Positions 1 to 14,025 of a DNA stretch of 14,025 nt are shown here, one piece after another. A model generated the notes under the pieces. The model saw nothing but the letters and a program-made list of their open reading frames with translations, did not search any database and was not told the origin of the DNA. The DNA is from Candidatus Micrarchaeota archaeon. GTDB lineage: Archaea > Micrarchaeota > Micrarchaeia > Anstonellales > Anstonellaceae. The stretch's first letter is position 1; the number at the start of each line of letters is the position of its first letter. The DNA is taken from assembly GCA_013331805.1 (NCBI GenBank), contig DUFS01000041.1:1-14025 (forward strand), given 5' to 3'. The translations under genes and the position numbers were made by a program.

Positions 1-45
1 TCTAGTTCTTCTTCCTTTTTTTATTTTCCCTTTTTTTAGGTTGGG

Positions 46-1014
46 CTAATTTGAAAGCCAGGAAAGCTTCCCCTCCTCCACGCGGTACTTGAGTTTTTTC
101 CCGGAAAGCTCCCCCGATTTTATCAGGATAAGGGTATCCGTGCTCACTCCGCTTGGCACAGCGCTTATTCCGAGGAGTCCGAGCGCCTCAGTGATTGGAA
201 GGGAAAAATCGGACGAGCCTATTGAAAACACAGCCTCTCCCCCCCTCACAGTTATTTTCTCAAGCCTTCCTAACTTTTCAGATGCCGAGGTTTTTTTCAC
301 CATGCGCGAGTACGAGTTGAAGTGCAGCTCGCCGTTCTTGAAGCTCACGTTCTCCAAAAGCAGCCGGTCGCCAGGCACAATTTTCGGGGTCCCCTCGGGC
401 GCTGACCAGACCACCACCCGCCTGCAAACGCCTTCTTCGCAAAGCTGGAAGGAGGAAAGGGATTTTTTTTCCCCTGTTTTTTTGTCCAGGTAGTGGTAGG
501 CCATCTCAATCTCACCAACTTCGCCTTCCACATTGCAGGTTCCCGCAGTGAGCTTGGAGACAGCCACCCTGGGATTTTCCCTGCTTTTTTCGATTTTCCC
601 GTTTTTCGAAACCGCGATTTCCCCGGACCTGAAATAAGCGCCAGTGCAACGGATGCAGTCCCCCACCGATATGCCGCCTTCCACAATGCCCGCCTGCTCG
701 TTCCAGAGCACCATCGTGGCTTGTGATGACGCATCGGATATATGCAGCCTGACCGACTTTCCGAGCTTGTTTTGGTAAGTCTGCACCGGGAATATCCTGT
801 CGACGCAGGCTTCGAACGAAAACGGCAGGTGGGAGCCTTCCGCCTCCTTTAGCGCGACCTTCTGCTCCACGTCGATATTATGCTGCCTGCAAAGGAGCCT
901 CACTGCCGCGCCCCTGGTTAGGAGGCCCCCGAATTCGGAAATCTTGCTTTCAACTTCGCCCTGGAACTTCTCCCCCAGCCTTCCTTTCAGCTTTTCCTCG
1001 AAAACATCCGCCAT
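46..1014 (-). CDS. Replication protein A-like single-stranded DNA-binding protein (tandem OB folds)
   Basis: N-terminal 'FGGLLTRGAAVRLL' helical motif typical of euryarchaeal/DPANN RPA. Two OB-fold-like segments ('LHISDASSQATMVLWNEQA...VGDCI' and 'RRVVVWS...PGDRLLLENV...ELHFNSYS'). ATG at 1014 has GGAG upstream; the ORF is open to 1044. Confidence 0.75.
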   Translation of the reverse strand: MADVFEEKLKGRLGEKFQGEVESKISEFGGLLTRGAAVRLLCRQHNIDVEQKVALKEAEGSHLPFSFEACVDRIFPVQTYQNKLGKSVRLHISDASSQATMVLWNEQAGIVEGGISVGDCIRCTGAYFRSGEIAVSKNGKIEKSRENPRVAVSKLTAGTCNVEGEVGEIEMAYHYLDKKTGEKKSLSSFQLCEEGVCRRVVVWSAPEGTPKIVPGDRLLLENVSFKNGELHFNSYSRMVKKTSASEKLGRLEKITVRGGEAVFSIGSSDFSLPITEALGLLGISAVPSGVSTDTLILIKSGELSGKKLKYRVEEGKLSWLSN

Positions 1015-1075
1015 GCAAAACTCCAGCATGCGTTTTAATCCCAACTTTTATAATCTGTGGAGGGATTAGCTCTGC

Positions 1076-1975
1076 ATGGGAAAAAGGATTGTGGCAGTCG
1101 GGCACATAGTCTACGACATAAGGAACTACGTTGAGGAATTCCCGGAGCCCGACCACACTGCGGTCATGCGCATGGACCCAAAGGTGAGCGGAGGCGGGTC
1201 TGCCGCAAACGTGGCTGTCAACCTCTGCAAGCTCGGCTTTAATTCGGGCGTGGTCGGGAACGTTGGAACCGACCGGCACGGGAAATTCCTGCTTTCTGAT
1301 CTGCAGCGTTTCGGGGTGGACACCTCCCAAGTCAGGGTTTTCAGGGGCATGTCCGGCCTGTCGGTGATAATAATCGACGCGCATGGCGAGGTACGCGTGG
1401 TCGAGGATTTCGGCGTTGCGGACAGGCGCCGCGCAATCGACCCGGATTACATCAGGGAGTCGCAGTTTTTGCACATGAGCGGCTGCGCATTCCATTTGCT
1501 GGATGCCGCAAGCAGGGTTGCGAATCAGTCGGGCATACCAATCTCATTCGATCCTGGCCGGGCGGCCTCCCGGCTTGGGGAAAGGAAGCTTGCGCCCATT
1601 CTCAAAAGGGCAGAATACCTGATAATCAACCGCAAGGAGCTTTTTGCCATGACCGGCTCGCGCGAGGAATCTGCGGCATCTGACCTTGCCAAGAGGCACA
1701 ATCTTGTCTGCGTCATAAAGCAGGGCGGAAGGGAGATAATCGTGAAAACTGCGGCCGCAGACTCATTCACCGTGGATCCCTTCCACGTGAAGCCCGTTGA
1801 CACGCTCGGCGCAGGGGATGCGTTCTGCGCAGGTTTCATCGCAGGGGTGAACGAAAGAAAATCGCTTTTCGAGTCAGTGCGCTTCGCAAACGCCGTTGCG
1901 GCTGCCAAAGTCCTGAGGAAGGGGGCGCAGTCATTGCCTTCCAGGCGCTTCATAGCCAACAAATTCAAGGTTTGA
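1076..1975 (+). CDS. PfkB/ribokinase-family carbohydrate (or nucleoside) kinase
   Basis: PfkB signatures 'GGSAANVAVNLCKLG...GNVGTDRHG' and 'DTLGAGDAFCAGF'. Substrate cannot be assigned. Confidence 0.93.
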   Translation: MGKRIVAVGHIVYDIRNYVEEFPEPDHTAVMRMDPKVSGGGSAANVAVNLCKLGFNSGVVGNVGTDRHGKFLLSDLQRFGVDTSQVRVFRGMSGLSVIIIDAHGEVRVVEDFGVADRRRAIDPDYIRESQFLHMSGCAFHLLDAASRVANQSGIPISFDPGRAASRLGERKLAPILKRAEYLIINRKELFAMTGSREESAASDLAKRHNLVCVIKQGGREIIVKTAAADSFTVDPFHVKPVDTLGAGDAFCAGFIAGVNERKSLFESVRFANAVAAAKVLRKGAQSLPSRRFIANKFKV

Positions 1976-1985
1976 GGGGCGGGCA

Positions 1986-2699
1986 ATGGAAAAAATCACC
2001 CGGGCATTCGTGGTCGCGAACGAACAAAAGCCGATTGCGCGGAGGATAAAAAAGGAAGCAGAAGGGTTCCTCCGTTCTCAAGGGGTAAAAATTTCCGCCT
2101 CTTCCCCGAAGCTCATAGTCACTGTCGGCGGGGACGGCACTGTCCTTTTTTCCAAGAGATTCTACGGAACCCCCTTCTTTTCAATAGGAAGCTCGACCAG
2201 CTTCATCTGCCAGTCGAATTTCTCAGACTGGAAACGCAAGCTTTCCAGCTTCCTCAAAAGGCCGAAAGTGGAGCGCAGGCTGCTTCTTCAGTCCTCAATA
2301 GGGAAAAAGAAGCTTCCGCTTTCTCTCAACGAAATCGGAATCCGCAACCCCGAGCCCCGCGTGCTCTCCCTCCACCTTGCAGCAGACGGCAGGAATTACG
2401 CTTTCCGGGCTGACGGGATACTCTTCTCCACGCCCACCGGGTCTCCAGCTTACTGCTACTCGTGCGGAGGAAAGCAAATGGCAAAAAATGACACGCGCTT
2501 CCAGGCAGTGGCGATCGCGCCTTTCAGGAGGCTGTTCCCCCCGAGAATTTTCACAGCCAGTGCGGTCTGCCTGCTTCGCATATCCGGGAAAGAGCGCCCG
2601 CAGCTTTTCATCGACGGGCAGATTACTGGGAAGATGTCCCAAAAGGAAACCTTGGTGGTGAAGGCAAGCAGGCTGCGCTTTTGCTTCGCAGCAATCTGA
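1986..2699 (+). CDS. nadK: NAD(+) kinase
   Basis: GGDGT motif, 'LNE', 'DGILFSTPTGSPAYCYSCGG' and 'IDG'. Starts 10 bp after the PfkB gene, so probably co-transcribed. Confidence 0.9.
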   Translation: MEKITRAFVVANEQKPIARRIKKEAEGFLRSQGVKISASSPKLIVTVGGDGTVLFSKRFYGTPFFSIGSSTSFICQSNFSDWKRKLSSFLKRPKVERRLLLQSSIGKKKLPLSLNEIGIRNPEPRVLSLHLAADGRNYAFRADGILFSTPTGSPAYCYSCGGKQMAKNDTRFQAVAIAPFRRLFPPRIFTASAVCLLRISGKERPQLFIDGQITGKMSQKETLVVKASRLRFCFAAI

Positions 2700-2706
2700 T
2701 CTCCAA

Positions 2707-3936
2707 TCAGGCAAGAAGCATCCTGAGGTAAAAAAACGGGTCCCTTGCCTTTTTTTTCGCTTCCCTGCTCGCAATCATCCCTGCAAGCTCCTCGCGGAGC
2801 CACTCGCTTCGCTTTGCCTTTGAAATCGCAAGTTCAAGCACCCATCCGTTCGAAAGCACCTTCTGCATGGCGTGGCTGTAGCCCACATCAGGGCCTATCT
2901 CCTCCCAAAGCCGCCCCTCATATCTCAGGCAATCCTGAATAGTCACCTGCCCCTTTGCAAGCGCCGTGCCTATTACTTCGTCTGCAATTGCTGCGCTCTT
3001 CATGCCGTTCCCTATCCCCTCGCCTGAAAAGGGGTCCACCAGCGAGGCTGCATCGCCAAGGAGAATGAAGCCGTCGCCCGAGCATTTCCTCCTTGCAGAG
3101 GCAAGGGGCAGGCTCCACCCCCTCATCCTGCCCTGCAATTTGGCAGAGGCGAACCTTTGCGCGAATTTCTTGCTGCTGATGCACTGCAAGAGAACCTGCT
3201 CCAAATTGACCTTCCTTTTTTTCGCCTCAGAAAGGAGCATGCCCACTCCCACGTTTGCCTCGTTCTTGGAAAGTGGGAAAATCCAGAAGTAGCCTGGCAT
3301 GGACTCGGGTACGAAGTGCACCTCGATGTTGCCGCGCAGGCCGCCCACTCCAGAATAATAAGCGCGGACAGCCGCGGCATAGTGCCTGCTGTCCGCTGCC
3401 AGGCAGCCTGCCTTCCTTGCCACAATCGAATTGACCCCGTCTGCGCCAATAACCACATTACAATAATAGTTCTCCTCCTTTCCATCATGCCTGGCTTTGA
3501 CTCCCACCACCTTTCCCTCTTCGGACAGCACATCCACCACTTCGGTTTTTTCCATTGCCTTGCATTTTTTTTCCGCATGCTGGAAAAGGATGGCGTCAAA
3601 GTCCTCCCTTTTGCAGACAAAGCCCCCACTCACTTTTTTTCCGTTTTCCAAAAGCGGTATTTCCACCTCGTTTCCGCTGGGGGATGAAAAAATTATGCCC
3701 GAATTCCGCGGGAAGCCTTTTTCAGAAAGCTCCTGCATCAGCCCCAGCCTTTCAATAACGTTCAGCGCCTTGCCCCCTATCGCATCCCCGCAGGGCTTGT
3801 CCCTGGGAAAGCTCTCCTTGTCCAGCAAAAGGATCCGCAGCCCCCTTTCGGCAAGAAGGCAGGCGCAGGTGGAGCCCGAAGGGCCTGCCCCCACCACTAT
3901 CGCGTCAAATGCATTCCCTTCCATAAGCGCACCCAT
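2707..3936 (-). CDS. Geranylgeranyl reductase-family FAD-dependent oxidoreductase
   Basis: 'VVGAGPSGS' Rossmann motif, 'FPRDKPCGDAI', 'GADG', 'GYFWIFP', 'GDAASLVDPFSGEGI'. Alternative start at 3924 (GGGTG upstream). Confidence 0.92.
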   Translation of the reverse strand: MGALMEGNAFDAIVVGAGPSGSTCACLLAERGLRILLLDKESFPRDKPCGDAIGGKALNVIERLGLMQELSEKGFPRNSGIIFSSPSGNEVEIPLLENGKKVSGGFVCKREDFDAILFQHAEKKCKAMEKTEVVDVLSEEGKVVGVKARHDGKEENYYCNVVIGADGVNSIVARKAGCLAADSRHYAAAVRAYYSGVGGLRGNIEVHFVPESMPGYFWIFPLSKNEANVGVGMLLSEAKKRKVNLEQVLLQCISSKKFAQRFASAKLQGRMRGWSLPLASARRKCSGDGFILLGDAASLVDPFSGEGIGNGMKSAAIADEVIGTALAKGQVTIQDCLRYEGRLWEEIGPDVGYSHAMQKVLSNGWVLELAISKAKRSEWLREELAGMIASREAKKKARDPFFYLRMLLA

Positions 3937-4072
3937 TGCCTTTTACATTCGGTCCGCAAAAGTTATTTAAGCAAGGTCGGCTTCCAGAAAGGCGGGAAGG
4001 GAGCAAAGGTATTTAAACGTAAAGTTATAGAAAGAGGAATAATAAGTTTAGAGTTCTTTTAGGGGGATCCAT

Positions 4073-5437
4073 ATGGACAAACTATTTGCATTTTTCGCAG
4101 TGCTTCTTCTCGCTGTGCATCCGGTCCTGGCAGCCGATGAAGACAGGCTTCTCGAGCAAAAGGCACAGGTGACAAATGATGTTGATCCTTCCATAGGCCC
4201 TTCGAACGAGGTTCTGCCGGTGATTTCTCCCGCCATTTCAAATGCCATGTCCTGCTCCCTCTCGCCAAGCTCTATCGTTATTTCAGTTGGCAACTCCACC
4301 TGGGTCAGCGCGTCCTGCTCACAGGGCGGAAACGAAGTCGAGTGCCCGGAAGTTTTTTGGAGCACCACAATCGGGGAAATAATGCCGAGGAACAAGGAAG
4401 GCCCGGCTGCACTCTTCGTGGCCGGCAACTCGTCCGGCACTGGAAAAATCACCCTCTCAGGCACTGATGATTACAGGCCCCTGAGATGCTTTGCAGACGT
4501 ACAGGTGACGGACGGAAACGAATCTGTCCAGGCTCCACCCGTATCTTTAAGCGGGGCTGGCTCAAACAACGGAGGCGGGACTTTCCGCACCTCCACCACT
4601 GTTTCGATCTCCTGCGCAGGCAAGCCTTCGCAGATAAAGGTCACATACTACGTTTCCCCGCCTCCCAAAGCGGTTGTGGGCATATTCTACAAGGGCGGCG
4701 GAGCATTCACCAAGGTGTACTCGGCATCAATTGAATCGACCTCGACATTTTCATTCACACCCGGCAAAACAGGGGACTACGAGCTCCACGTTTCCATAGG
4801 CGCTGACCAGACCACCAAGAGCTTCTCAGTGGCAGCCTGCGCGCCCAATGCAACCAACGCCACGCAGCAGGTTGTAACTGTAAACCTGCAGCCCAGCCGC
4901 GAACTGATCCTCTCAAGGACGGTATCTTATGACGGCGGGTTCTCCAAGGATTTCAAGGTCTACAAGCTTACCAGCCAGGGAACAGAGGAAAGCTACGTTA
5001 CTGAGATAACACTGCGCTACTTCTACGGCGGCGAAGGAGTCGGCAAGAGCATGACAATTTCCGACTCTGCGCCAAGGCAGGTGGTGTCCAAGTCCAGCCA
5101 GATTGTCTTTGACAAATATCCGAGTTTCGTGGCGCCTGATCCGGAGGTGCGCTTCGAATGGACAGTGCCCTCGGGCAATGAGGAGCAGGTGCTGTCTTAC
5201 GGCTACAGGTTCTCCCGCCCGCTGACAGAGCAGATGATAGCCGCCTTTGCCCCTCCGCGCGCATTAGCAAGATCTGAGCAGGGTTCAGAGGAGGCCGGCA
5301 TTGGAACCGACCTCGCCGCATCGCTCATCGCGAACGGGCTTTTCGGCTTCTCCCTGGTCAGCATTGCAGTCGCCATCCTGGCGCTCATACTGCTGGCAAT
5401 GATTCTGGGCGTGGTCTTCGGAAGGAAGAGAAGTTAA
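4073..5437 (+). CDS. Secreted, C-terminally membrane-anchored surface protein with probable Ig-like beta domains
   Basis: N-terminal signal peptide (MDKLFAFFAVLLLAVHPVLA), S/T/G-rich beta-type domains, several N-x-S/T sequons, C-terminal hydrophobic helix followed by RKRS. GGGGG SD-like sequence upstream. Confidence 0.75.
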   Translation: MDKLFAFFAVLLLAVHPVLAADEDRLLEQKAQVTNDVDPSIGPSNEVLPVISPAISNAMSCSLSPSSIVISVGNSTWVSASCSQGGNEVECPEVFWSTTIGEIMPRNKEGPAALFVAGNSSGTGKITLSGTDDYRPLRCFADVQVTDGNESVQAPPVSLSGAGSNNGGGTFRTSTTVSISCAGKPSQIKVTYYVSPPPKAVVGIFYKGGGAFTKVYSASIESTSTFSFTPGKTGDYELHVSIGADQTTKSFSVAACAPNATNATQQVVTVNLQPSRELILSRTVSYDGGFSKDFKVYKLTSQGTEESYVTEITLRYFYGGEGVGKSMTISDSAPRQVVSKSSQIVFDKYPSFVAPDPEVRFEWTVPSGNEEQVLSYGYRFSRPLTEQMIAAFAPPRALARSEQGSEEAGIGTDLAASLIANGLFGFSLVSIAVAILALILLAMILGVVFGRKRS

Positions 5438-5469
5438 GGCGGGAAGCTAAAGAGCGAAGGCTGAAGGGA

Positions 5470-5934
5470 TCAGGACAGCTCATCCTCAGAATAAGTAAGG
5501 CCCTCAAGCGCCCTTTTGTAAGAGTGGATTTCTTCCTGCCTGAAGAAGCGCTTTATCTCCTTTTCCGCGCTTTCCTTGGAATCAGAGGCGTGTATCACAT
5601 TGTATTGGGTGGATAGCGCCAGGTCCCCACGAATTGTGCCGTTCTCAGCATTGGCAGCGTTTGTGGCTCCGCACATCCTGCGCACGATTTCCACAGCTTC
5701 CTTCCCCTCAATCACCGCAAGCACCACTGGCGAGGAGGACATGAACCTTACAAGCGATGGGAAAAACGGCTTTGCTTTCAGGTGCGAGTAGTGCTCCCCA
5801 AGAATGGCATTCGAAAGCTTCTCCATCTTCATTGCGCAAATGGAAAAGCCGCGCTGCTCGAACCTTTGGAGCACAATGCCGCAAAGCCCCCTCTGCACGC
5901 AGTCTGGCTTGAGTATGATGAGGGTCTTCTCCAT
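5470..5934 (-). CDS. ndk: Nucleoside diphosphate kinase
   Basis: 'EKTLIILKPD', 'GTIRGD' and catalytic 'NVIHASDS'. Conserved archaeal position downstream of L24e. ATG at 5934 follows AAGGAA. Confidence 0.97.
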   Translation of the reverse strand: MEKTLIILKPDCVQRGLCGIVLQRFEQRGFSICAMKMEKLSNAILGEHYSHLKAKPFFPSLVRFMSSSPVVLAVIEGKEAVEIVRRMCGATNAANAENGTIRGDLALSTQYNVIHASDSKESAEKEIKRFFRQEEIHSYKRALEGLTYSEDELS

Positions 5935-5939
5935 TTCCT

Positions 5940-6212
5940 TCACTTCTTCTCGGGCGTGGCAGCGAATTTCTTCTCGGCAAGCTTCTGCTCAATTTCCTTT
6001 GCAAGCGCTGACTCCTTCCTTTCAGGCGCCTTTTTCTCGGTCGAGAGAATGAGCCCCTTGTTAGTCCACTTCATGCGCCTGCCTTCGCGGCGCAGGCCCA
6101 CCTGGTTTGCCTTGCACTTGGAAGAGCAGAAATTCAGGGTGGTTCCGTCGCGAAGCACGTAGATTTCCCCCGTGCCCTTGGAGATTTCGTTGTTGCAGAA
6201 AGAACAGAACAT
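5940..6212 (-). CDS. rpl24e: 50S ribosomal protein L24e (eL24)
   Basis: 'CSFC...GTG..YV..DG....FCSSKC...KWT' zinc-binding TRASH pattern, plus operon context. Confidence 0.95.
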   Translation of the reverse strand: MFCSFCNNEISKGTGEIYVLRDGTTLNFCSSKCKANQVGLRREGRRMKWTNKGLILSTEKKAPERKESALAKEIEQKLAEKKFAATPEKK

Positions 6213-6217
6213 GAAAA

Positions 6218-6433
6218 TCACTTTGCCTTTATTTCCTTTGCCTCACGCTCGGTCTCAAGGAGCATCATGATGTCCCCCTTGCGGACAGGGCCCTTGACGT
6301 TCCTCCTGATGACCCTCCCCCTGTCCTTGCCGTCCAGCACCTTGCACATGACCTGGTATACCTCGCCGTGGATGCCGGTCTTCACGACCACTTCCACCAC
6401 TTCGACAGGTATTCCGTCTTGCGTGATTGCCAT
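6218..6433 (-). CDS. rps28e: 30S ribosomal protein S28e (eS28)
   Basis: '[47 protein letters not shown]'. True start is the ATG at 6433; the upstream part of the 150-aa ORF is an off-frame read of L7Ae. Confidence 0.96.
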
Positions 6434-6443
6434 CAGCCACACC

Positions 6444-7007
6444 CTACTCCTTTTTCTCGGCCGGCTTTTCAATCTCGAGCTTCTTTTCCTTTTTGGGTTT
6501 CGCAGCCTTGTTTTTTTTCTCCTTAGGCTTTTCGGCGTGCTCGTGCTTCTTCTCCTCGTGCTTGGCTTCTGCCTTGTGCTCGTGCTTCTTCTCCTCGTGC
6601 TTTTCAGCAGGGGCTTTTTCCGCAGGCTTTGCCTCTGCTTTTGGCGCTGACTTGCCAAGCTTGTCAGCAATGCTCTTCACAATTTCTGCCGCATTCCCGG
6701 CCTTCTCGATTGTGATTGCCGCAGAGGGGACGGAAAGCCCGGCTGCAGCTCCCAGCTCCTTCTTGGTCGGGACATAGCAGTATGGGATTCCCTTTTCGCC
6801 GCAGATCATCGGGATGTGCATGACCACTTCCTCCGGGTCGACATCCTCCGCGATGACCACGAGCGCGGCGGTTCCGCCTTCGATCGCCTTGGTGGTCTCG
6901 TTCGCGCCCTTCCTGATCTTTCCCGTGTCGCACGCTACTGTTATTGCCTCGAGCGCCTTGGACTGGATTTCCTTCGGTGTTTCAAACTTGATGTAAGACT
7001 TTGCCAT
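6444..7007 (-). CDS. rpl7ae: 50S ribosomal protein L7Ae (eL8) with long charged C-terminal extension
   Basis: '[15 protein letters not shown]...[18 protein letters not shown]...GIPY...KELGAAAGL', followed by a ~65-aa K/E/H/A-rich tail. Confidence 0.97.
6537..6602. repeat. Perfect 27-bp direct repeat (6537-6563 and 6576-6602) encoding KHEEKKHEH twice in the L7Ae tail
   Basis: gtgctcgtgcttcttctcctcgtgctt occurs twice with a 39-bp period. Confidence 0.9.
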
Positions 7008-7013
7008 GATATC

Positions 7014-7056
7014 AACCTCGTTCCTGCCGCATGCAGCGGCCGGAGCTTCATAGGCT
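7014..7056 (-). promoter_or_regulatory. Putative kink-turn in the rpl7ae 5' UTR overlapping the Shine-Dalgarno
   Basis: mRNA reads AGCC-UAU-GAAG...GCCGC(UGCAU)GCGGC...ACGA-GGUU-GAUAUC-AUG: C-stem AGCC/GGUU, 3-nt bulge, tandem G.A/A.G pairs. GAGGU SD lies on the 3' strand. Confidence 0.65.
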
Positions 7057-7095
7057 CTTTAGAAAAAAGAGCGTTTGGACTTAAGCGGCAATGGG

Positions 7096-7103
7096 TTTAT
7101 AAG
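7096..7103 (-). promoter_or_regulatory. TATA box of the rpl7ae-rps28e-rpl24e-ndk operon
   Basis: CTTATAAA on the minus strand, about 24 nt upstream of a 5' hairpin (GCUCUUU...AAAGAGC, 7072-7054). Confidence 0.6.
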
Positions 7104-7184
7104 ATTAATGCCCGCCGCTGGCGTCGGAACCAAGTTACATTCATTTAAAAACATTTTTGAACACAAAATAGCCAGGAGGATACC

Positions 7185-7436
7185 ATGGGCTTATTTACGC
7201 TTTTCAGCAAGCCTCAAGCAAAATCAACAGGAACGTCTAAGGGCGTGAGTGTGGCCTTTTTCAAAAGCGGCAGGCGGAGTGGGGCAAGGGTTTCTTATCA
7301 TAGCCGGCGCCCCTGCGGCAGGATGTTGAGCGCCATTCGGCACAGGCTGCAGCTCGCCCGCGGGAACCAGAAGGCGCAGGCAGCCAAGCTCGAAAGGTGC
7401 GAAAAATCGCTTCGTGCAAATCGGGCGGACTCCTGA
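7185..7436 (+). CDS. Small basic hypothetical protein
   Basis: 83-aa ORF filling the intergenic gap, with strong SD (GGAGGG) and TTTAAAA TATA-like box at about 7144. No recognisable family. Confidence 0.6.
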   Translation: MGLFTLFSKPQAKSTGTSKGVSVAFFKSGRRSGARVSYHSRRPCGRMLSAIRHRLQLARGNQKAQAAKLERCEKSLRANRADS

Positions 7437-7444
7437 GGGGCGTT

Positions 7445-8002
7445 TCACTTCGCAATGTCAAGCAAGGCGCCAAGCGCGGCAGGAAGCTCGTTAATCCCTT
7501 CCGAGTGCGAGAAGTGCCCCATGTTCTTAAGCACAATGAGCTTTGCCCCAAGCTTCTGCTCAAGCTCCTTTCCGTATCTCACTGCCACGTACCTGTCGTT
7601 CGTGGAATGTATTGCAGCAAACTTACCGCAGTGCGACCGGATTTTCCCAAAATCAAGAGGATTTGGGAAGAAATCCTTCAACTCATTCATGCCCAAATCA
7701 TCCGTGAAGCCAGCGACCAGCACAACCCCGCCGACCCTCTCGCCCTTCTTCAGCCTTTCGATATAGCGCAAGACCGCAACAGTGCCCAGGCTGTGCCCCA
7801 CAAAATAGGTATTGGTGTCTGGCTTGCCAGCCAATTCGGAAAGCACGCCGAGCCATTTTTCCATTTTCGGGTTTTCCGCATCCGGCATCTGCGGCGAGAA
7901 GGTTTTGAATCCATTTGCCTCAAGCTTCTTCTGCAGCCATCCCTTCCATCCCGAGCCCGCAGTCCCGCCCCACCCGTGGATTATAAACGCCTTTTTCCCC
8001 AT
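7445..8002 (-). CDS. RBBP9/YdeN-family alpha/beta serine hydrolase
   Basis: 'IIHGWGG...W..WL', nucleophile elbow GHSLG, 'HSTNDRYV' and 'GHF'. Confidence 0.92.
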   Translation of the reverse strand: MGKKAFIIHGWGGTAGSGWKGWLQKKLEANGFKTFSPQMPDAENPKMEKWLGVLSELAGKPDTNTYFVGHSLGTVAVLRYIERLKKGERVGGVVLVAGFTDDLGMNELKDFFPNPLDFGKIRSHCGKFAAIHSTNDRYVAVRYGKELEQKLGAKLIVLKNMGHFSHSEGINELPAALGALLDIAK

Positions 8003-8121
8003 GGTTTCACTTTCGGCGTCACCTTAAAAAGCATTTTGGGCGCAATTTTACCAGGTGACCTGCAATTGCCTTAAAAATGGTTTGTTGTAGAAAGGATAAT
8101 ATCACGTAAATCGGTGGGAAT

Positions 8122-8649
8122 ATGCTGAAACAGGCGAGATTGGTGGCCTTTGCTGAAAAATTCCCTGTGACTGCTGGAAAGATGGGCGTGCCGCTAAACG
8201 AGGAACTAACTACGAGAAGAGTGCTAAACAAGGAATCAGAAAAAAAATTGGGCGTTATTCTAACTTCATTCAATAACCATCCAAATGATGGCAAAGGCGC
8301 AATGGTTAAAGTCAGAGAAAAGCTGTCAATTGAATTTTTGGGGTTGCTGATACAAGCCGCCCGCGAGAATGAGAACTGCACATGGTCAATGGCAACGAAA
8401 AAAGTCAATGGCAGCCGCGTGATAAGCATTCAAGCCAATGAAGACCCAAAAAATCTTTCATTTGACATCTTTGTAGGGCTCACCTCCCCTTTTTGGATAT
8501 TGGGCGAAAAATACATCTGGCAGGATACATCCATATTCATTAATCCTGGCGAAGGGAAAAAGTTTGAATCACAAGTGAAGTATGTTGTGGAAGAACTTCT
8601 CAACTACGATTCGAATCATGCCCAGGCAAGGAATATTCCCAAATTTTAA
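8122..8649 (+). CDS. Hypothetical protein (AT-richer orphan)
   Basis: 175-aa ORF with GGTGG SD-like sequence upstream. Visibly lower GC than the neighbouring genes. Confidence 0.7.
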   Translation: MLKQARLVAFAEKFPVTAGKMGVPLNEELTTRRVLNKESEKKLGVILTSFNNHPNDGKGAMVKVREKLSIEFLGLLIQAARENENCTWSMATKKVNGSRVISIQANEDPKNLSFDIFVGLTSPFWILGEKYIWQDTSIFINPGEGKKFESQVKYVVEELLNYDSNHAQARNIPKF

Positions 8650-8705
8650 TGAGAAAGCCGTCTCCTGGCGGGGCAATGGGCACAAGAAGATCCGAAAATA
8701 GCACG

Positions 8706-8717
8706 TTTCTTTTTTTT
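8706..8717 (+). terminator. Possible oligo-T archaeal terminator
   Basis: TTTCTTTTTTTT downstream of 8122-8649, between convergent genes. Confidence 0.35.
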
Positions 8718-8736
8718 CCAAATACTAATGCCCAAT

Positions 8737-9084
8737 TCAGCAGCACCCTTTGGGCTTTTTTTCAGCCAGCCCCACCTTGATTTTCAGCACGAGCTTGGCA
8801 GTTCCGTCCTTCTTTTCCGAATATTCTGCGCCCTTCCCCTCCGCCTCAAACACCAGCCGCGTGTCGTCCACGTCGAGAGGGTTTTCCCAGAAAAAGCGGT
8901 TGATGTCCGAAACGAGCTTCCTTTTCACCTTGCCATCCAAGTCGTCGCTTTTCCTTCCGACAAGGGTGATTTCCCCCTTGCGGTTTGTTATGTCCCCAGT
9001 AAGGAGGTTGGCGGGCAGCACTCGTATCGAATATTTCGAGTAGGCCTCCAGAAGCTTTGTTGCAGCGCCAATGCCGCTATCCAA
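8737..9084 (-). CDS. Hypothetical protein coupled to ppcA
   Basis: 115-aa ORF with protein-like composition. The TTG start overlaps the ppcA stop by 8 bp; the start is uncertain. Confidence 0.6.
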   Translation of the reverse strand: MDSGIGAATKLLEAYSKYSIRVLPANLLTGDITNRKGEITLVGRKSDDLDGKVKRKLVSDINRFFWENPLDVDDTRLVFEAEGKGAEYSEKKDGTAKLVLKIKVGLAEKKPKGCC

Positions 9085-10543
9085 GGAAATTCCTCTTCCA
9101 GGCGGTCTTCATTATCGCGTCCGTGAGGATGGCGCGGTTTTCCGAAAGGGCTATGTCCATCACTTCAGATGCCGCCTCCGAGTACTCCGTATCCTCCTTT
9201 GCCTCGAAATTCACAAGCACGCGCTCGATTTCCTTTCCCACCCCGTTCGGAAGCCTGGAGAGGTTCTTCCTGCAAAGGTAGCGGGTGGAGTCCGAAATGT
9301 CCTCGTCAAATGCAACGTACATGGTCCGCACGGCATCCAGCTCATTTTCTGACAAAGCGGAAAGACCGAGCAATTCGGGCGGAAGGCCAATCGAGTAAAG
9401 CGCGGAACAGAATGGAATGGCACGGGGCAGGGACAGGCCATGCATGGAGCGGGAGTAGCCGAAAAGCCCGATGTGGAGCTTCCTTGCCCGCCTGGAGGGG
9501 TTGTAGCGCGAAAGGGTGTGAATGAGCTGAGAGAGCAATGTCACTTCCTTCTGGTACTGGCGGCTGGTCTTGTCGATTATCCTGTTTGCGGTCTCCTCAT
9601 CCACGAAAAGCGGCTTCCCCCTTTTTGCCTCGCTGATTTCCTGCACGCCCTTCCTCACCACGCTTTCAGGGTAATCGTACTTGAACGAGGACTGGAGCGT
9701 GAAGGTCTGGACAGAGGGGTATTCCTTGAGGCAGTTTGCGGCGTTAGTGGGCTTCAAATTTCCCCTGAAGGGCGCCGAGCCCACCCCGATGATCGGCAGG
9801 ATCTCAACAGATGATTTCTTTTCAAGTACGTGGAGCTTTTGCAGGCATACCTTGTTCAAAAGCACAGCGGCTAATGATCCGTAGTTCAGCGCAGGGTCGC
9901 TCCTTGCAAGGAACACCCTCTGGCGCTCGAACCTTTTCCCCTCGATGAATCCGCCTACAATATTGTCCGCGCCGCTCAACGCCTCCCTGTTTTCCACAAG
10001 GGGGATCAGGCGTATCTCCTCTGGGGCAAAGGCGCCCACCCACTCGGAGACCGTGATGTCGCCCACCTTGGTATTCTTTTTGCCCACAACCACTTTCTTG
10101 TAATAGTCGTAAATCCTTTCCAGCTCCATAGAGGAGCAGCACATTGGCAGGATCACCTCCCAGATGGGAGGGGAGCTTTCCCCGGAGGCGGATGCAATGT
10201 CGAAATTCCTGGGAATTGATTCCAGCGTCTCAAGGAGGATCTTCCCTTGCGTTTTTTCCACGTTGGGGTTGGGCACCCGCAAGGTCAGGTAGCAGTCTGA
10301 GCCGAGCTTGTTCTCAGAGAAGAATTTCGGGTAGCGGGACAGGAGCTTTTCCACCACGTGGTTGTCCACTTCCTTGCCTTCGCAGTCCCACATCTGCTCC
10401 CGTATCCCCAGGTGGGAAAAAACGTAGTACGTTTCCTTGATTTCGGTCTCGCCTGCGAGGATTTCGCTGTCAGAGAAAAAGGGCGAATTCACATTGTCGG
10501 GGTGCTGCGTGCTCATGCATCTTGATACCGCGCCTTTTTCCAT
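9077..10543 (-). CDS. ppcA: Archaeal-type phosphoenolpyruvate carboxylase
   Basis: 'MSTQHPDN', 'MWDCEGK', 'RVFLARSDPALNYG', 'GVGSAPFRG' and 'LPRAI'. The 488-aa length is typical of PpcA. Confidence 0.96.
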   Translation of the reverse strand: MEKGAVSRCMSTQHPDNVNSPFFSDSEILAGETEIKETYYVFSHLGIREQMWDCEGKEVDNHVVEKLLSRYPKFFSENKLGSDCYLTLRVPNPNVEKTQGKILLETLESIPRNFDIASASGESSPPIWEVILPMCCSSMELERIYDYYKKVVVGKKNTKVGDITVSEWVGAFAPEEIRLIPLVENREALSGADNIVGGFIEGKRFERQRVFLARSDPALNYGSLAAVLLNKVCLQKLHVLEKKSSVEILPIIGVGSAPFRGNLKPTNAANCLKEYPSVQTFTLQSSFKYDYPESVVRKGVQEISEAKRGKPLFVDEETANRIIDKTSRQYQKEVTLLSQLIHTLSRYNPSRRARKLHIGLFGYSRSMHGLSLPRAIPFCSALYSIGLPPELLGLSALSENELDAVRTMYVAFDEDISDSTRYLCRKNLSRLPNGVGKEIERVLVNFEAKEDTEYSEAASEVMDIALSENRAILTDAIMKTAWKRNFLG

Positions 10544-10647
10544 AATCCGACCCGGACAAGTTCGTTGCCTAAAAGTTTTTATATCTCTGCGCAGAATTAA
10601 GGGCAGTCAAGTCGATTATGGGTAAACAAGCGACTGGGGGTTTGTAC

Positions 10648-11169
10648 ATGGCATTTCACAAAGCAGGTCAGGGGGCAATTGAGTGCTGCTCCGGCAGCAC
10701 TGCTCGCACCTTATCAGGCCAAGGCGCGACCGAGTATCTCATAATGCTGGCTGCGATCCTAATTATCGCGCTGGTGGCGCTTGCGCTTCTGGGCTTCTTC
10801 CCCGGGATATCCTCGGATGCCAAGGTATCGCAATCCGCATCCTACTGGCGGAGCGAGGCAAAGCCGCTTTCGATTTTGGAGCACCAGGTCACAGCAGGCG
10901 GCGAAATGACGCTTGTTCTCCTGAACGTGGATGCCAGCGGCACCATAAGGCTGAAAAACGTGACCGTGGGCGACACTTTCAATGACTCGTTCGGAGCCAC
11001 GGGCTTCAGGTTCGGGCCCGGCGAGCAGCGCACAATCCGCATCTCTGACCTTGAGGGGGGCGACGCGGGCACCATGTACGAATTCCCGCTGAACTTCACT
11101 TACGTAAGCGTGAACGGGGTTACCACGACGCAGTACGGGGTCAAGACGCTGGTAGGCAAGTATTCGTAA
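10648..11169 (+). CDS. Class III signal peptide-containing (pilin-like) protein
   Basis: G|QGATEYL followed by a hydrophobic helix (LIMLAAILIIALVALALLGFFPG) and a beta-rich C-terminal domain. ATG at 10648 has GGGGGT SD; the ORF is open from 10618. Confidence 0.85.
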   Translation: MAFHKAGQGAIECCSGSTARTLSGQGATEYLIMLAAILIIALVALALLGFFPGISSDAKVSQSASYWRSEAKPLSILEHQVTAGGEMTLVLLNVDASGTIRLKNVTVGDTFNDSFGATGFRFGPGEQRTIRISDLEGGDAGTMYEFPLNFTYVSVNGVTTTQYGVKTLVGKYS

Positions 11170-11305
11170 AAATAAGACGGGCACAAGGGGGACCAGCAGG
11201 TTATGGTCAGCCAAACGTCCATTCAAAATGGGAATGGACGCAGCCATCGTTCAGAAGCGCAAGCAGGACATCTCGGATTTGTGGAACGCCAGCCGAGGCT
11301 TCGAG

Positions 11306-11344
11306 AAAGCCTTTTAAACAGTTTTAATCACTTTCTACAACAAT
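11306..11344 (+). promoter_or_regulatory. Promoter copy 1 of a 39-bp direct repeat (BRE-like AAAG + TTTTAAA)
   Basis: 36/39 identical to 12002-12040. Lies directly upstream of the 11343 ORF. Confidence 0.75.
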
Positions 11345-11990
11345 GGGTGTAGAGATGAAAATTGCCCAGAAAAGCAATGGCGACGGGATTGTGAAGGAAG
11401 TGAACAGTCTGCTTAGGGAAGCACGAAAAAACATCAGTACAAGGGAATTTTTCATAATCAAGGTCAGAAGCGAGATGGCTTTAATGCTCGCACACAAAGT
11501 CAATCACGGCTTTCCAAAAAAAATCCCTGAAAAAGTCAATGAAATTAAAGGACGGGTAATTATGGCTGAAGTAAAAAGCCTTCTTAGAGAAGCCCGAAAA
11601 AACGTCCAAAATGGGAATTCCACCAAGGCTTTGGACGACATAAGGTCTGCCAAAGAGCTTGCAGAGGGCGTCAATGGCCTGCCCAAGGAAATCGCTGAAA
11701 AAGTCAATGGGGTGTTTGAAAACGAAGTGGTTTTCCTTCTTGCCAAAGCCCGAAAAAGCGCCATTGGCAAGAAGCTGAAACTGGGGGCAGCCCTGTTGGA
11801 ATTAAAGGCTGCAAAAATACTCGCAGCCAATATCAATCATGGCTTGCAGGAAAAAGCCTCTGAAGAATTTGATGAAATCATATCCGATATACAATACATT
11901 TCCAATGGCGTCCGCGCCTCTTCTCTTAGGCGCCAGCCTTCCAATTCCTTCACAAGGCAAAAGACCATGGCAGACAAGGAGCACCAGTAA
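11343..11990 (+). CDS. Hypothetical alpha-helical protein with three ~55-aa internal repeats
   Basis: Repeats: EVNSLLREARKN...VNHGFPKKIPEKVN / EVKSLLREARKN...VNGLPKEIAEKVN / EVVFLLAKARKS...INHGLQEKASEEFD. Alternative start at 11355. Confidence 0.8.
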   Translation: MGVEMKIAQKSNGDGIVKEVNSLLREARKNISTREFFIIKVRSEMALMLAHKVNHGFPKKIPEKVNEIKGRVIMAEVKSLLREARKNVQNGNSTKALDDIRSAKELAEGVNGLPKEIAEKVNGVFENEVVFLLAKARKSAIGKKLKLGAALLELKAAKILAANINHGLQEKASEEFDEIISDIQYISNGVRASSLRRQPSNSFTRQKTMADKEHQ

Positions 11991-12001
11991 TGGCGGAATC
12001 A

Positions 12002-12040
12002 AAAGCCTTTTAAACAGTTTTAGTCACTTATTACAACAAT
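12002..12040 (+). promoter_or_regulatory. Promoter copy 2 of the 39-bp direct repeat
   Basis: aaagccttttaaacagttttagtcacttattacaacaat, 16 nt before the ATG at 12057. Confidence 0.75.
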
Positions 12041-12056
12041 AAGCAAGGGCGATAGC

Positions 12057-12471
12057 ATGATATCTGCTCAAAGTAATAAATCCCGCGCGCGGGCTTTCAT
12101 CCGAGAACAAGGAGCTTGCGCGCCGCATGGGAGTATCCGCGGGCAGCAAGCGCAAGGCGCTCAAGCTGATAAATCAGGTTCTCGTGATAAACTTGAATGG
12201 CTATAGTGAACTGACCAAGCTGGAAATATTAATCGGGCTGGCAAATGAGAAGGCGCACAAGCCAAACTTCGGGGAAAAAATGCTTGGGCTTAAGCACGAT
12301 AAGCTTGTCGCGGACCTGACCGGCTACCTTATGCAGGTCAAGCCTTCGCCAGATCAATCTCCAAAAGCTGATTTCACGCCGTTGCGAACGCCAAGGAAGC
12401 TTTATAAACTCACCCTATCTAATACAAACCCGCACGGGCCGGGAAACCGGGCAGAGACTGTGCAGGAATGA
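12057..12471 (+). pseudogene. Probable frameshifted orphan gene, possibly a paralogue of 11343-11990
   Basis: The ATG at 12057 after the duplicated promoter reads MISAQSNKSRARAFIRE and then loses frame. The +1 frame continues KELARRMGVS... as the 12127-12471 ORF, whose tail runs through the putative rRNA promoter. Confidence 0.45.
12394..12408 (+). promoter_or_regulatory. Putative 23S rRNA promoter (purine-rich BRE + TTTATAAA)
   Basis: AGGAAGC-TTTATAAA about 24 nt upstream of a GC-rich stem-loop (12432-12463) that begins the structured non-coding region. Confidence 0.6.
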
Positions 12472-12924
12472 GGAAGCAGTAATTCGCTCGTCAGGGCGAC
12501 ATCAGCGCTGGGTTCTATGCTCGGCTGCGATGGATTCACAAAATCGGACAATCCCTAATACCTTCTACCGCAAAATGCGGGCGAACGAAGGGAGACTTTA
12601 AAAGTCGCTATTTCTCTGCGCGGGGTTTTCGCGTCCGTTTGCATCATTGTTTCATGCTCATAAGAGATTATGGGGCGTGTTCCCCCCTTGGGGGAAGCGC
12701 GGCTGCGGCCTTTATCGGCTGGAGCCAACTTGCGCATAGGTGTTGAAGAGGCCGGATTCACACATGAAGGCTTTGGAGCGTATGCGGATTTCACGAGTAC
12801 GAAGAGAGCGACTGATACTCACAAATAAGAGTTCAAAAGTGTCTAAGAGATTAGACGCCAAGTATATGCAAGTTCTGCAACGCGCAAGCGTTGCAGAATT
12901 ATGCAACGATTCGTCGTTGCATAT
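12432..12924 (+). ncRNA. Structured non-coding leader (5' external transcribed spacer) of the 23S rRNA; may contain a separate RNA
   Basis: No credible ORF. Multiple hairpins with GAAA, GAGA, GCAA and UUCG tetraloops, and long-range complementarity between 12469-12489 and 12806-12821. Confidence 0.5.
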
Positions 12925-14025
12925 GTTACGCCATTCAGTGGATGACTAGGCTCAAGTAACACAGGGCCCCGCGGCAAGCAGCGAAATTCTCCGGGTAGGT
13001 GCAGGCAACCTTTGATCCGGAGGCAGGGCGGCGCACAGAAATGTGCTATCACCCCGAGAATTAAAACATTCTAGTAACGGGTGGAAAAGAAACCAATTGG
13101 GATTCGGCCAGTAAAGGTGATTGAACGCCGAACAGAGCGCACCGAATCCTGCGCAGCAATGTGCAGGAGATGTGGGGCGGAATATCCGCTTCCGGATTCG
13201 AGGTCGGCTGGAAAGCCGCGCCATAGAGGGTGAAAGCCCCGTAGTTCAACGGAAGCGGAGTGAAGCCAAGCGAGTAGTGCTCATTGGATATTGGGCACGA
13301 ATATGGGGGCACTAACCTCCAACTCTAAATATAACTTGAGACCGATAGCAAATTAGTAACGCGAGTGAAAGTTGAAAAGGAGCCCGAAAGGGCAGTGAAT
13401 AAGAACCTCAAACTGAATGGCTACAATTTGATGCAGCATGAAAGGGCACGACTGCCGAAGCGAGTGCGCGAAAGCGCATTAGCGAGGCGGGCATACCAGT
13501 GTTGCATCGTTCTTCTCGAAGCAAGAGCCAGGGAGTTGATGTTGCGTGGCGAGGCGAAAGCCGAAGCGAAAGCGAGCGGGCGCATCGCAAGAAAGGCCCG
13601 TCGTGCGAAAGCGCGAGCAGTCACGCTCATCAGACTTGAAGCCGATGTGAACTAAGCGAGCGCAGGTCGAAGCCAGCCTGACGGCTGGTGGAGGACCGCA
13701 ACCGATGCTAGTATATTCTGCTCGGGTGACGCGTGCTTAGGGGTGATAGTCCAATCGAACTCGGCAATTAACTTCTGTGACACATTTAGTTATTTTTCGT
13801 CATTGAAGTTTGCCAAAGCGAGTTCCTCCCGAAATGTCCCTCAGGACAGCGTCGGTCGAGATTGGCTGCGGGGTAGAGCACTGATCACGGGGATCGGTTT
13901 CGAAAGGAATCGCCTTGTTGTCAAACTCCGAATCTGCAGCCGTCGTAGAAGCCGGCAGTCGGGTTCTACTGGGTAAGCTAGTAGGCCATTACGGGAACGA
14001 CCGGGACCGGGGTTAAGGTCCCTAA
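12925..14025 (+). rRNA. rrl: 23S ribosomal RNA, 5' part (domain I and much of domain II; runs off the window end)
   Basis: Conserved segments GTGGATGACTAGGCTC, GAATTAAAACATTCTAGTA, GAGGGTGAAAGCCCCGTA, GACCGATAGC, GGGGTAGAGCACTGAT, GTCAAACTCCGAA and GGGGTTAAGGTCCCTAA. Helix 2 pairs GCCATTCAGT (12930-39) with ACTGAATGGC (13412-21). The 5' end is approximate. Confidence 0.97.
13769..13816 (+). other. 48-nt archaeal BHB-type intron in the 23S rRNA
   Basis: Central helix GGCA/TGCC, 3-nt bulges ATT and AAA, intron helix AACTTC/GAAGTT. Splicing gives CUCGGCAAU|AGCGAGUUCC, colinear with the archaeal consensus GCCGGAGAUAGCUGGUUCC. Confidence 0.85.

Follow-up and report, generated by a model that had tools for sequence, protein, structure and literature searches.

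Introns excised at BHB motifs have long been known from archaeal rRNA genes, both as short hairpins and as endonuclease-bearing elements. BHB introns that encode LAGLIDADG proteins occur in archaeal 23S rRNA genes, e.g., the intron of Desulfurococcus mobilis that encodes I-DmoI, and the classical LAGLIDADG introns of the 23S gene are located in domains IV and V. Short (<50 nt) hairpin BHB introns have been described from the 16S rRNA genes of Thermoproteales, where RtcB and the tRNA splicing endonuclease are considered responsible for their removal (Jay & Inskeep 2015, PMC4496867). For DPANN archaea including Micrarchaeota, excerpts of a second study report group I introns in LSU genes, often with LAGLIDADG genes, and its Figure 1 legend notes BHB introns in the same archaeal LSU genes (Nawrocki, Jones & Eddy 2018, PMC6125680). 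The epsilon2-type EndA of ARMAN-2 is reported, in the available parts of three papers, to cut relaxed, non-canonical motifs, in assays that used pre-tRNAs (PMC3239211, PMC5829648, PMC3488258).

The window analysed here comprises 14,025 nt and is the entire contig C77 of a Micrarchaeota genome assembly. We interpret positions 13769-13816 as very probably a minimal BHB intron, located in domain II of the only 23S rRNA gene detected in this archaeon, at the site corresponding to E. coli U803/A804. The gene is cut by the contig end, and the Rfam LSU_rRNA_archaea match covers model positions 1-1132 of 2987. The 3' two-thirds are absent from the assembly, in which a BLAST search with the 23S of a relative as query returned the window's piece only. 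An RF02540 search of the genome's contigs gave no match despite the 23S piece in the window, which we take as a limitation of the tool. The features of the locus are as follows:

12914..14025, + strand: 5' part of the 23S rRNA gene (cmscan RF02540, 743 bits)
13757..13762, + strand: 5' exon strand GAACUC of the outer exon-exon helix h, paired with 13820-13825 in both the MFE fold and the centroid
13763..13766, + strand: exonic 5' strand GGCA of the central 4-bp helix H, pairing with UGCC at 13811-13814
13767..13769, + strand: 5' bulge AUU of 3 nt (centroid fold), with the 5' splice site at 13768/13769
13769..13816, + strand: the 48-nt intron without reading frame (longest open frame 15 aa)
13770..13775, + strand: 5' strand AACUUC of the intron helix h', pairing with GAAGUU at 13805-13810
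13777..13803, + strand: terminal hairpin (fold) with stem GUGAC/GUCAU (strands 13777-81 and 13799-803) and a 17-nt loop
13805..13810, + strand: 3' strand GAAGUU of the intron helix h' (fold, allele comparison)
13811..13814, + strand: intronic 3' strand UGCC of the central helix H (fold, allele comparison)
13815..13817, + strand: 3' bulge AAA, with the 3' splice site at 13816/13817 (fold, relatives, RNA joint)
13820..13825, + strand: 3' exon strand GAGUUC of the outer helix h (fold)

Most of this structure had been proposed in an earlier sequence-only reading of the window, and its description of the locus holds. The insert is AT-rich by direct count (15/48 G+C, against 0.54 in the cmscan match to the 23S) and ORF-less as stated, and alignment to K-12 rrlH places the insertion between U803 and A804. 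The coordinates given for the GGCA/TGCC helix, the ATT and AAA bulges and the inner AACTTC/GAAGTT and GTGAC/GTCAT pairings agree with ours and are matched by the centroid of the RNA fold of 13745-13835, which has the BHB structure (MFE -21.9 kcal/mol, z = -3.57) and is equalled by only one of 200 shuffles. The slight displacement that the same reading saw in the outer GAACTC/GAGTTC helix is likewise present and results from two extra bases (G13818 and C13819) on the 3' strand, a 2-nt offset relative to a strict BHB. The MFE fold leaves both of them unpaired as well, and thereby relaxes the 3' bulge to 5 nt. The locus thus combines a 4-bp helix and opposite 3-nt bulges with helices h and h', and the motif, as folded, is of the relaxed rather than the strict form; an EndA of strict specificity might refuse it.

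The cleavage rule for such motifs is a cut after the second nucleotide of each bulge, in agreement with the canonical 37/38 site of tRNAs. Applied to the two bulges, this rule removes exactly 13769-13816, as the sequence-only reading had deduced, and the predicted cuts coincide with the boundaries obtained from 27 intronless loci and with those obtained from RNA contigs. The exon boundaries are therefore located at the symmetric cleavage positions of the bulges. At this site the rule fits at shift 0 and at no other shift between -6 and +6. A scan of both strands of the window for a 4-bp H, two 3-nt bulges and an h' of at least 6 bp in exact register, at lengths of 20-120, found 180 fitting pairs among 2,817,496 position/length combinations (6.4e-5).

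The boundaries receive independent support from related 23S genes. Among 30 related loci spanning the site, 27 lack exactly these 48 nt and read ...GGCAAT/AGCG... without interruption, while the remaining three carry inserts. The cmscan alignment instead assigns a 51-nt insertion to the loop of a neighbouring hairpin, with low posterior probabilities. We reject this placement as an alignment artefact because of the insert-free reading of the relatives and because the BLAST alignments break at 13768/13817. Alignment to the Rfam model had been suggested as a check on the boundaries; cmscan does place them away from the bulges, but the relatives show that in this case cmscan is wrong. The insert in fact interrupts a conserved single-stranded tract and not one of the usual variable loops. 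One claim of the sequence-only reading has to be withdrawn, namely that the adjacent exon is atypical: GTGATAGTCC is present in 24 of the 27 intronless and in all three insert-bearing loci. This exon sequence is typical of the lineage and common to both kinds of loci, and is therefore unconnected with the intron.

Contigs from three RNA runs of two studies contain the exon joint from 13768 to 13817, skipping the 48 nt (two contigs each in runs X20 and X14, one in X13). The X13 contig has a length of 291 nt, extends 141 and 150 nt to either side of the joint and shows zero differences to the window. Run X20 (RNA) and run X1 (DNA) derive from the same sample, and a near-identical X1 contig of 3,755 nt retains the insert; this pairing of DNA and RNA within one sample applies to X1/X20 and not to X13 or X14. 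At the level of contigs, then, the RNA has lost the intron and its exons are ligated. Mature RNA retaining the 48 nt, which the sequence-only reading had named as evidence against splicing, was not seen in these contigs. None of the RNA contig pieces among those listed covers 13769-13816, and we base the argument on the joints alone, because a gap in contig cover in itself proves nothing.

However, we also have to consider the alternative of an expansion segment or another insertion kept in the mature 23S rRNA, in which case the joined RNA contigs would stem from co-occurring intronless strains with identical exons. The treatment of the extra bases as a loop insertion by cmscan would agree with this, as would the existence of insert-free close relatives. 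A contig of a related genome (G021), whose 69-nt 5' flank is 100% identical to the window, ends exactly at the junction, as would fit alternative alleles in a mixed population. The RNA evidence moreover consists of assembled contigs, which prove presence but not absence: rare variants are dropped, and the ratio of spliced to unspliced molecules as well as intron circles are beyond their reach. The sample might thus also have contained a rare intronless strain whose exons are identical. Against this stands the pairing of X1 and X20, in which the DNA contig retains the insert and the RNA is joined, while a near-identical insert-free DNA contig was not found in X1; its sole insert-free contig belongs to a diverged relative with GAT at the junction. 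The X13 contig matches the exons of the window exactly, whereas identity to the nearest intronless relatives over the 69-nt 3' flank reaches 97% at most. The absence of 13769-13816 from the listed RNA contig pieces and the position of the insert in a conserved single-stranded tract point in the same direction. Bases that are kept, or removed without ligation, are not what the RNA contigs display, as these cross the joint. We accordingly regard retention of the insert as very improbable and splicing of the intron as the better explanation.

Genes for the corresponding enzymes are present in the genome. An EndA gene on contig C69 (Pfam tRNA_int_endo, 65 bits) encodes a protein closely homologous to the epsilon-type EndA of ARMAN-2 (PDB 4fz2, E = 2.4e-94, chain residues 4-283), which keeps the residues matching Y236, H251, K282 and K161, for whose roles in the ARMAN-2 enzyme we refer to the relevant parts of PMC3488258. 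This relationship is in line with the expectation of the sequence-only reading that a DPANN/ARMAN enzyme would accept a relaxed motif. The gene is broken by two Ns at a position where relatives encode about 100 further residues, the beta-C unit, so that we infer a complete EndA for the host from the comparison with these relatives. The EndA open frames of relatives have lengths of 401-481 aa. A gene for the RNA ligase RtcB (490 bits) is also encoded by the host. EndA and RtcB would thus be the enzymes acting on the intron. As to tRNA genes, aragorn with intron search reported 19 tRNAs in this genome, 10 of them intron-bearing; several of the introns are implausibly long, and they were not used as comparators.

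We propose that in the pre-rRNA the terminal exon bases GGCA pair with UGCC of the intron, forming a 4-bp helix between the bulges AUU and AAA, which would be extended on one side by the intron hairpin and on the other by the exon-exon helix, 2 nt out of register. The epsilon-type EndA of the host would cut after the second nucleotide of each bulge, and ligation by RtcB would yield ...GGCAAU-AGCGAG..., which in intronless relatives stands uninterrupted in the gene itself.

Removal of the insert without EndA and RtcB, either as a degenerate group I or group II intron or as an intervening sequence excised in an RNase III-like manner, appears extremely unlikely. Group I introns are known from LSU genes of Micrarchaeota (Table 1 in the part of PMC6125680 at hand), and the 23S gene of one related genome (G003) carries one farther downstream (RF00028, 61.7 bits). 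Bacterial intervening sequences, which are mentioned in PMC11270868, are generally known to be short and AT-rich. An insert of 48 nt is nevertheless too small for a group I or group II catalytic core, and Rfam intron matches are absent from the window (Intron_gpI, RF00028, at the gathering threshold). The longer alleles at this site, described below, have about 45 nt outside their reading frame and no intron match inside (RF00028, E up to 1). Excision of the RNase III type fragments the rRNA, whereas the RNA contigs span the joint, and the boundaries follow the BHB cleavage rule to the single nucleotide. These observations favour the BHB intron.

The site is not uniformly empty or occupied among relatives. 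Two genomes of two genera have inserts at the same junction, of 893 nt (G003) and 902 nt (G064), with intact LAGLIDADG open frames of 285 and 288 aa that are 71% identical to each other. The ORF of G003 comprises 282 aa from a GTG start and matches Pfam LAGLIDADG_3 (E = 2.2e-13). These two genomes were the only ones returned when the related loci were searched with the endonuclease alignment. Metagenome contigs add five complete long alleles (893-902 nt, open frames of 285-288 aa), a sixth cut by the contig end, one ORF-less allele of 120 nt and two further copies of the 48 nt (L040 and L043), identical in sequence and set in the same context. A further metagenome match (L048) was dropped as a chance match within non-rRNA sequence. 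The longer LAGLIDADG alleles that the sequence-only reading recommended looking for thus exist in two genomes and six metagenome contigs.

This allele series also bears on the quality of the assembly. The contig of the window ends within the 23S gene, and rRNA regions of metagenome-assembled genomes are prone to error, so that an assembly or chimera artefact has to be considered. The same 48 nt nonetheless occur in L040 and L043 and in the 3,755-nt contig of DNA run X1, although the latter is not independent, since X1 may be the window's own source. Together with the homologous longer alleles at the junction in two genomes and six metagenome contigs, this leaves an artefact practically negligible as an explanation, and we continue with the insert as a real intron.

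Helix H and the two intronic nucleotides of the 3' bulge are invariant across eight distinct alleles, and the 5' bulge is AUU in seven of them and AUA in G064. Substitutions in the helical regions maintain pairing. At the sixth pair of h', the long alleles of genus g1 have A-U where those of 48 nt and 120 nt have C-G; the third and fourth pairs of h' are G-U wobbles in one allele each. The terminal stem of the 120-nt allele (ACGACC/GGUCGU) has one pair changed on both sides, from U-A to C-G. Stem pairing is kept across the alleles by such two-sided changes (C-G vs A-U, C-G vs U-A, U-A vs C-G). The interiors, by contrast, show no similarity above the level of shuffles: that of the 120-nt allele aligned to the long allele with a similarity of 27, compared with a mean of 24 and a maximum of 41 in shuffles, and only the ends align.

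A tree computed from 677 columns of the exons places hosts with an insert beside intronless ones (G064 with G033, G003 with G022), and likewise the 120-nt allele with G010 and the 902-nt metagenome allele with G014. Such scattered occupation of one conserved site in closely related hosts, with inserts in three of the 30 spanning loci, is the pattern expected of a mobile intron. A LAGLIDADG endonuclease is encoded by the long alleles and not by the 48-nt copy. The genome's only tblastn match (E <= 0.01) to the endonuclease of the site is 29% identical and located within the 16S gene, where an unguided BHB scan around the 16S insert yielded noisy candidates only.

The 48-nt intron is most likely the end stage of the decay of a mobile intron. 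In relatives, the intron at the same site still encodes a putative double-motif LAGLIDADG homing endonuclease of about 285 aa, whose target site would be the place in which the 48-nt intron sits. Without an endonuclease gene the latter would be unable to move by itself. The sequence-only reading had postulated the loss of a homing endonuclease, and the occupation of this site by LAGLIDADG alleles in two genomes and six metagenome contigs makes this the natural reading. As no significant similarity to the long allele, and hence no endonuclease remnant, was detected in the interiors of the 48-nt and 120-nt alleles, the loss is still something we infer.

It is conceivable, if rather doubtful, that the 48-nt remnant is not debris in the course of being lost but persists as an immunity allele that splits the LAGLIDADG target at site 803. 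Such an allele would spare the one 23S gene detected here recurrent double-strand breaks, and at near-zero cost, because a broad-specificity epsilon EndA would remove the remnant, and the endonuclease of the site would then have to circulate among co-occurring Micrarchaeota. The identical 48 nt in three separate contigs and the conservation of the BHB core through the series of 48-nt, 120-nt and ~900-nt alleles are consistent with this. Less likely, folding of domain II during ribosome assembly might be aided by the hairpin after its excision, or by an alternative pairing between the exons that the hairpin enforces.

Most stages of the homing-endonuclease cycle are found here at one rRNA site: the empty site, the mobile intron with its endonuclease frame intact, an ORF-less allele of 120 nt and the 48-nt hairpin. 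Site 803/804, the lineage and the allele series appear to be undescribed; the site was not found in the literature searched, a scope that leaves aside older subscription papers on archaeal 23S introns and the intron tables of the Comparative RNA Web. DPANN elements of this kind have been noted in print, but are little described in that literature. The pre-rRNA with its relaxed BHB is a candidate natural substrate for an epsilon-type splicing endonuclease, and a candidate LAGLIDADG target, located in a conserved tract of the 23S (...CGAACTCGGCAAT/AGCGAGTTCC...), follows from the long alleles. The misplacement of such small inserts by covariance-model alignment implies that automated rRNA annotation and length statistics of small-genome archaea will miss them or call them loop expansions.

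Among the systems known from archaeal LSU genes, group I introns have a ribozyme core, which the insert of the window lacks, and their sites listed in the consulted parts of PMC6125680 are 1923, 1931, 2500 and 2593, not 803. The tRNA introns processed by the ARMAN-2 epsilon2 EndA share motif and cleavage geometry with the window's intron (PMC3239211, PMC5829648, PMC3488258), but the putative substrate here is a pre-rRNA; the available text of PMC3488258 makes no mention of an rRNA substrate for this enzyme. The architecture of the I-DmoI type recurs in the long alleles, both those of G003 and G064 and those of the metagenome contigs: the BHB core is joined to a long closing stem, and the loop is filled by a LAGLIDADG frame of the double-motif kind. 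The copy in the window differs from that type in the absence of a reading frame and in its position in domain II. The closest resemblance in form is to the Thermoproteales 16S introns, which, according to the excerpts of PMC4496867, are likewise ORF-less hairpins that keep the BHB core in a conserved rRNA tract, and some of whose sites likewise have both endonuclease-coding and short forms. Unlike these, the intron of the window belongs to a DPANN archaeon (Micrarchaeota) and not to a crenarchaeote, interrupts the 23S instead of the 16S gene at site 803/804 of domain II, has a relaxed 3' bulge and would be served by an enzyme of the epsilon type rather than by the crenarchaeal heterotetramer.

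The 48-nt insert at 13769-13816 of the window is very probably a spliced bulge-helix-bulge (BHB) mini-intron in the 23S rRNA gene, as a sequence-only reading had proposed; its boundaries, its fold, the joints in RNA and the alleles at the same site all support this. Every coordinate in that reading proved correct when the window sequence was read again.

Features of the host gene and of the BHB motif; motif elements are from the window sequence.
12914-14025, + strand: 5' part of the 23S rRNA gene (Rfam archaeal LSU model, 743 bits), truncated where the contig ends
13757-13762 and 13820-13825, + strand: outer helix, GAACTC/GAGTTC
13763-13766 and 13811-13814, + strand: central 4-bp helix (H), GGCA/TGCC
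13767-13769 and 13815-13817, + strand: bulges, ATT and AAA
13770-13775 and 13805-13810, + strand: inner helix, AACTTC/GAAGTT
13777-13781 and 13799-13803, + strand: helix continuation, GTGAC/GTCAT

The window is one entire contig of 14,025 bases in a genome assembly of 83 contigs and 1.19 Mb, in which a relative's 23S used as query found no further 23S piece. Neither a 16S gene nor a tRNA lies within the 12.9 kb 5' of the 23S gene (window 1-12913) and the 16S gene is on a separate contig (C10), so the rRNA genes of this genome appear unlinked.

Window 13560-14025 was searched against 61 genomes of the same order (40 with a match) and also against 42 genomes of the family (25 with a match). Both flanks were spanned in 30 of the 34 loci examined, and 27 of these have an insert length of 0, reading GGCAAT|AGCG across the junction. 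The other three carry inserts of 48 nt (the window), 893 nt (genome G003) and 902 nt (genome G064). The four non-spanning loci are two copies of one contig of the congeneric genome G021, a G018 contig that stops before the junction, and a G032 locus whose 3' flank has no match. The insert boundaries are thus 13768|13769 and 13816|13817, with no alternative placement, since the flanking bases differ. In an alignment with E. coli K-12 rrlH the site falls between U803 and A804. The sequence-only reading had named alignment boundaries away from the bulges as evidence against itself. Such boundaries are what cmscan returns: in the stretch 13745-13770 it models the extra 48 bases as a 51-nt insertion in the adjacent hairpin loop, with low posterior probabilities, and aligns the intron 3' end to exon consensus; the insert-free relatives rule this placement out as an alignment artefact. 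Automated annotation would label such an insert a loop expansion. The exon tract GTGATAGTCC (13740-13756), regarded earlier as atypical, occurs in 24 of the 27 intronless relatives and in all three insert-bearing loci; it is a lineage trait, unlinked to the intron. The G021 contig (C52; L015/L035, position 1) ends exactly at the 5' splice junction, with a 69-nt 5' flank 100% identical, which would fit an assembly break from mixed intron alleles in that population.

The insert has a G+C content of 15/48. The centroid of the RNA fold of 13745-13835 is the proposed BHB structure (-21.9 kcal/mol, z = -3.57; matched by 1 of 200 shuffles), and the minimum free energy structure differs from it solely by one A-U pair that is slid. 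Both contain two extra unpaired bases after the 3' bulge, and the 3' side of the motif is therefore relaxed. The BHB rule was encoded to require a 4-bp helix, bulges of 3 nt with the cut following the second nucleotide, and an intron helix (h') starting directly after the bulge. Applied to 2,817,496 pairs of position and length (20-120) on both strands of the window, it is fitted by 1,345 pairs when the intron helix must have 4 bp or more and by 180 when it must have 6 bp or more; at the site itself, among shifts of -6 to +6, shift 0 alone fits. The match of the comparative boundaries with the predicted cuts is not accidental.

Four of 22 public sequencing runs found were compared with 12914-14025 as assembled contigs rather than reads: X1 (DNA, possibly the source sample), X20 (RNA from the sample of X1), X14 (RNA, same study as X1) and X13 (RNA from soil, another study). 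The joint 13768->13817, which skips the 48 nt, occurs in two contigs of X20, two of X14 and one of X13, and is absent from the X1 contigs. Over its 291 nt, of which 141 and 150 flank the joint, the X13 contig does not differ from the window, and a 69-nt joint contig of X14 matches the window exactly. A 3,755-nt X1 contig, identical or nearly so to the window, contains the insert; the one insert-free X1 contig (228 nt) belongs to a diverged relative with GAT at the junction. RNA contigs free of the 48 nt, including those from the same sample as the insert-bearing DNA contig, rule out a retained expansion segment at the contig level, and their contiguous exons likewise rule out excision without ligation. 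Formally, a rare intronless strain with identical exons could also have supplied the joined RNA contigs, since contigs drop rare variants; nor do contigs give a spliced:unspliced ratio or show a circle. Splicing is nevertheless the reading that the DNA and RNA contigs together support.

Longer LAGLIDADG alleles, for which the sequence-only reading had suggested a survey, are present at the 803 site in G003, G064 and metagenome contigs. Motifs LAYLVGAMRDGS and GYVAGFFDAEGYV occur in the 282-aa reading frame of the 893-nt G003 insert (Pfam LAGLIDADG_3, E = 2.2e-13), and G064, of another genus in the same family, has a 288-aa open frame 71% identical to that frame. When metagenome contigs were scanned for the 5' junction pattern, ten stretches matched: two 48-nt copies identical to the window's, a 120-nt allele lacking a reading frame, five long alleles that are complete (893, 893, 893, 896 and 902 nt; open frames of 285-288 aa), one more long allele cut by its contig end, and a chance match outside rRNA, which was rejected. 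All eight distinct alleles have the H helix and the intronic nucleotides of the 3' bulge in common; at the 5' bulge G064 has AUA and the other seven have AUU. Stem pairing is kept despite sequence variation: at pair 6 of h' the short alleles have C-G where the long alleles of genus g1 have A-U, one stem pair varies among the long alleles (C-G or U-A), and a U-A pair in the terminal stem of the 48-nt allele corresponds to C-G in the 120-nt one. Between these two short alleles the first 7 and the last ~30 nt can be aligned, and their interiors have no significant similarity to the long allele. We infer from the shared site and core, rather than from sequence similarity, that the short alleles probably descend from the long form by deletion. 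In a maximum-likelihood tree built from 677 exon columns of 24 rows, in which many forks are unresolved, hosts with the insert are interspersed with intronless ones, a pattern compatible with a mobile element that is gained and lost. Searches for a group I core gave no match in the window nor, with E allowed up to 1, within the long alleles; the latter search did recover a group I intron further downstream in the G003 23S gene (L014 284-604, minus strand; RF00028, 61.7 bits, E = 2.2e-14).

The genome has one tRNA_int_endo match, a 290-aa frame of the splicing endonuclease EndA with N-terminal and catalytic domains, which matches PDB 4fz2 (E = 2.4e-94, chain residues 4-283 of 395), the epsilon2 EndA of ARMAN-2, built of alphaN, alpha and betaC units (PMC3488258). 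The catalytic Y236, H251 and K282 of that enzyme and K161 of its lineage-specific loop (PMC3488258) are all kept. Two Ns interrupt the gene (L031 1733-1735, C69) where relatives, with open frames of 401-481 aa, encode about 100 more residues (linker 2 and betaC), and the last 20 residues resume after the Ns in another frame; the betaC unit is probably hidden in this assembly gap and the enzyme not truncated. A gene for the RNA ligase RtcB is also present. In its 960-aa frame (L053, C72:1-2690) a LAGLIDADG_3 match separates the stretches that match RtcB profile positions 1-50 and 44-426, which are about 1.4 kb apart. The ligase gene thus looks intein-bearing.

Other traces of mobile elements were observed. 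The 1.19-Mb genome has eleven LAGLIDADG_3 matches, and many inteins are suggested because six of these are spread over five open frames measuring 960-1,268 aa. The 16S gene (L055, C10:931-4158; 829-3134, minus strand) measures 2,306 nt against a model of 1,478 positions and holds an endonuclease-bearing insert, whose 224-aa open LAGLIDADG_3 frame is 29% identical to the 803-site endonuclease; a separate 97-nt piece downstream (274-370 of L055) matches a eukaryotic SSU model. In the related genome G015 (L007 1252-1298), another 23S hairpin has an insert of 47 nt in its GUAA loop, at the equivalent of window 13977/13978. This insert agrees with the BHB rule in one register, with G-U wobbles at three of four H pairs and an h' of 5 bp, and may mark a second site for a mini-intron.

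No paper that names position 803 as an rRNA intron site turned up in a literature search, to which the Comparative RNA Web tables and older subscription literature were out of reach. The case is a clean one and gives DPANN archaea a new site and a probable rRNA substrate, and the biology is otherwise as expected. In DPANN LSU genes, BHB introns are mentioned beside group I introns, and the group I sites listed are 1923, 1931, 2500 and 2593 (PMC6125680). For the 16S genes of Thermoproteales, rRNA sites are described at which both hairpin BHB introns of <50 nt and endonuclease-coding introns occur (PMC4496867); those introns lie in 16S, whereas the present insert lies in the 23S gene of a DPANN host.
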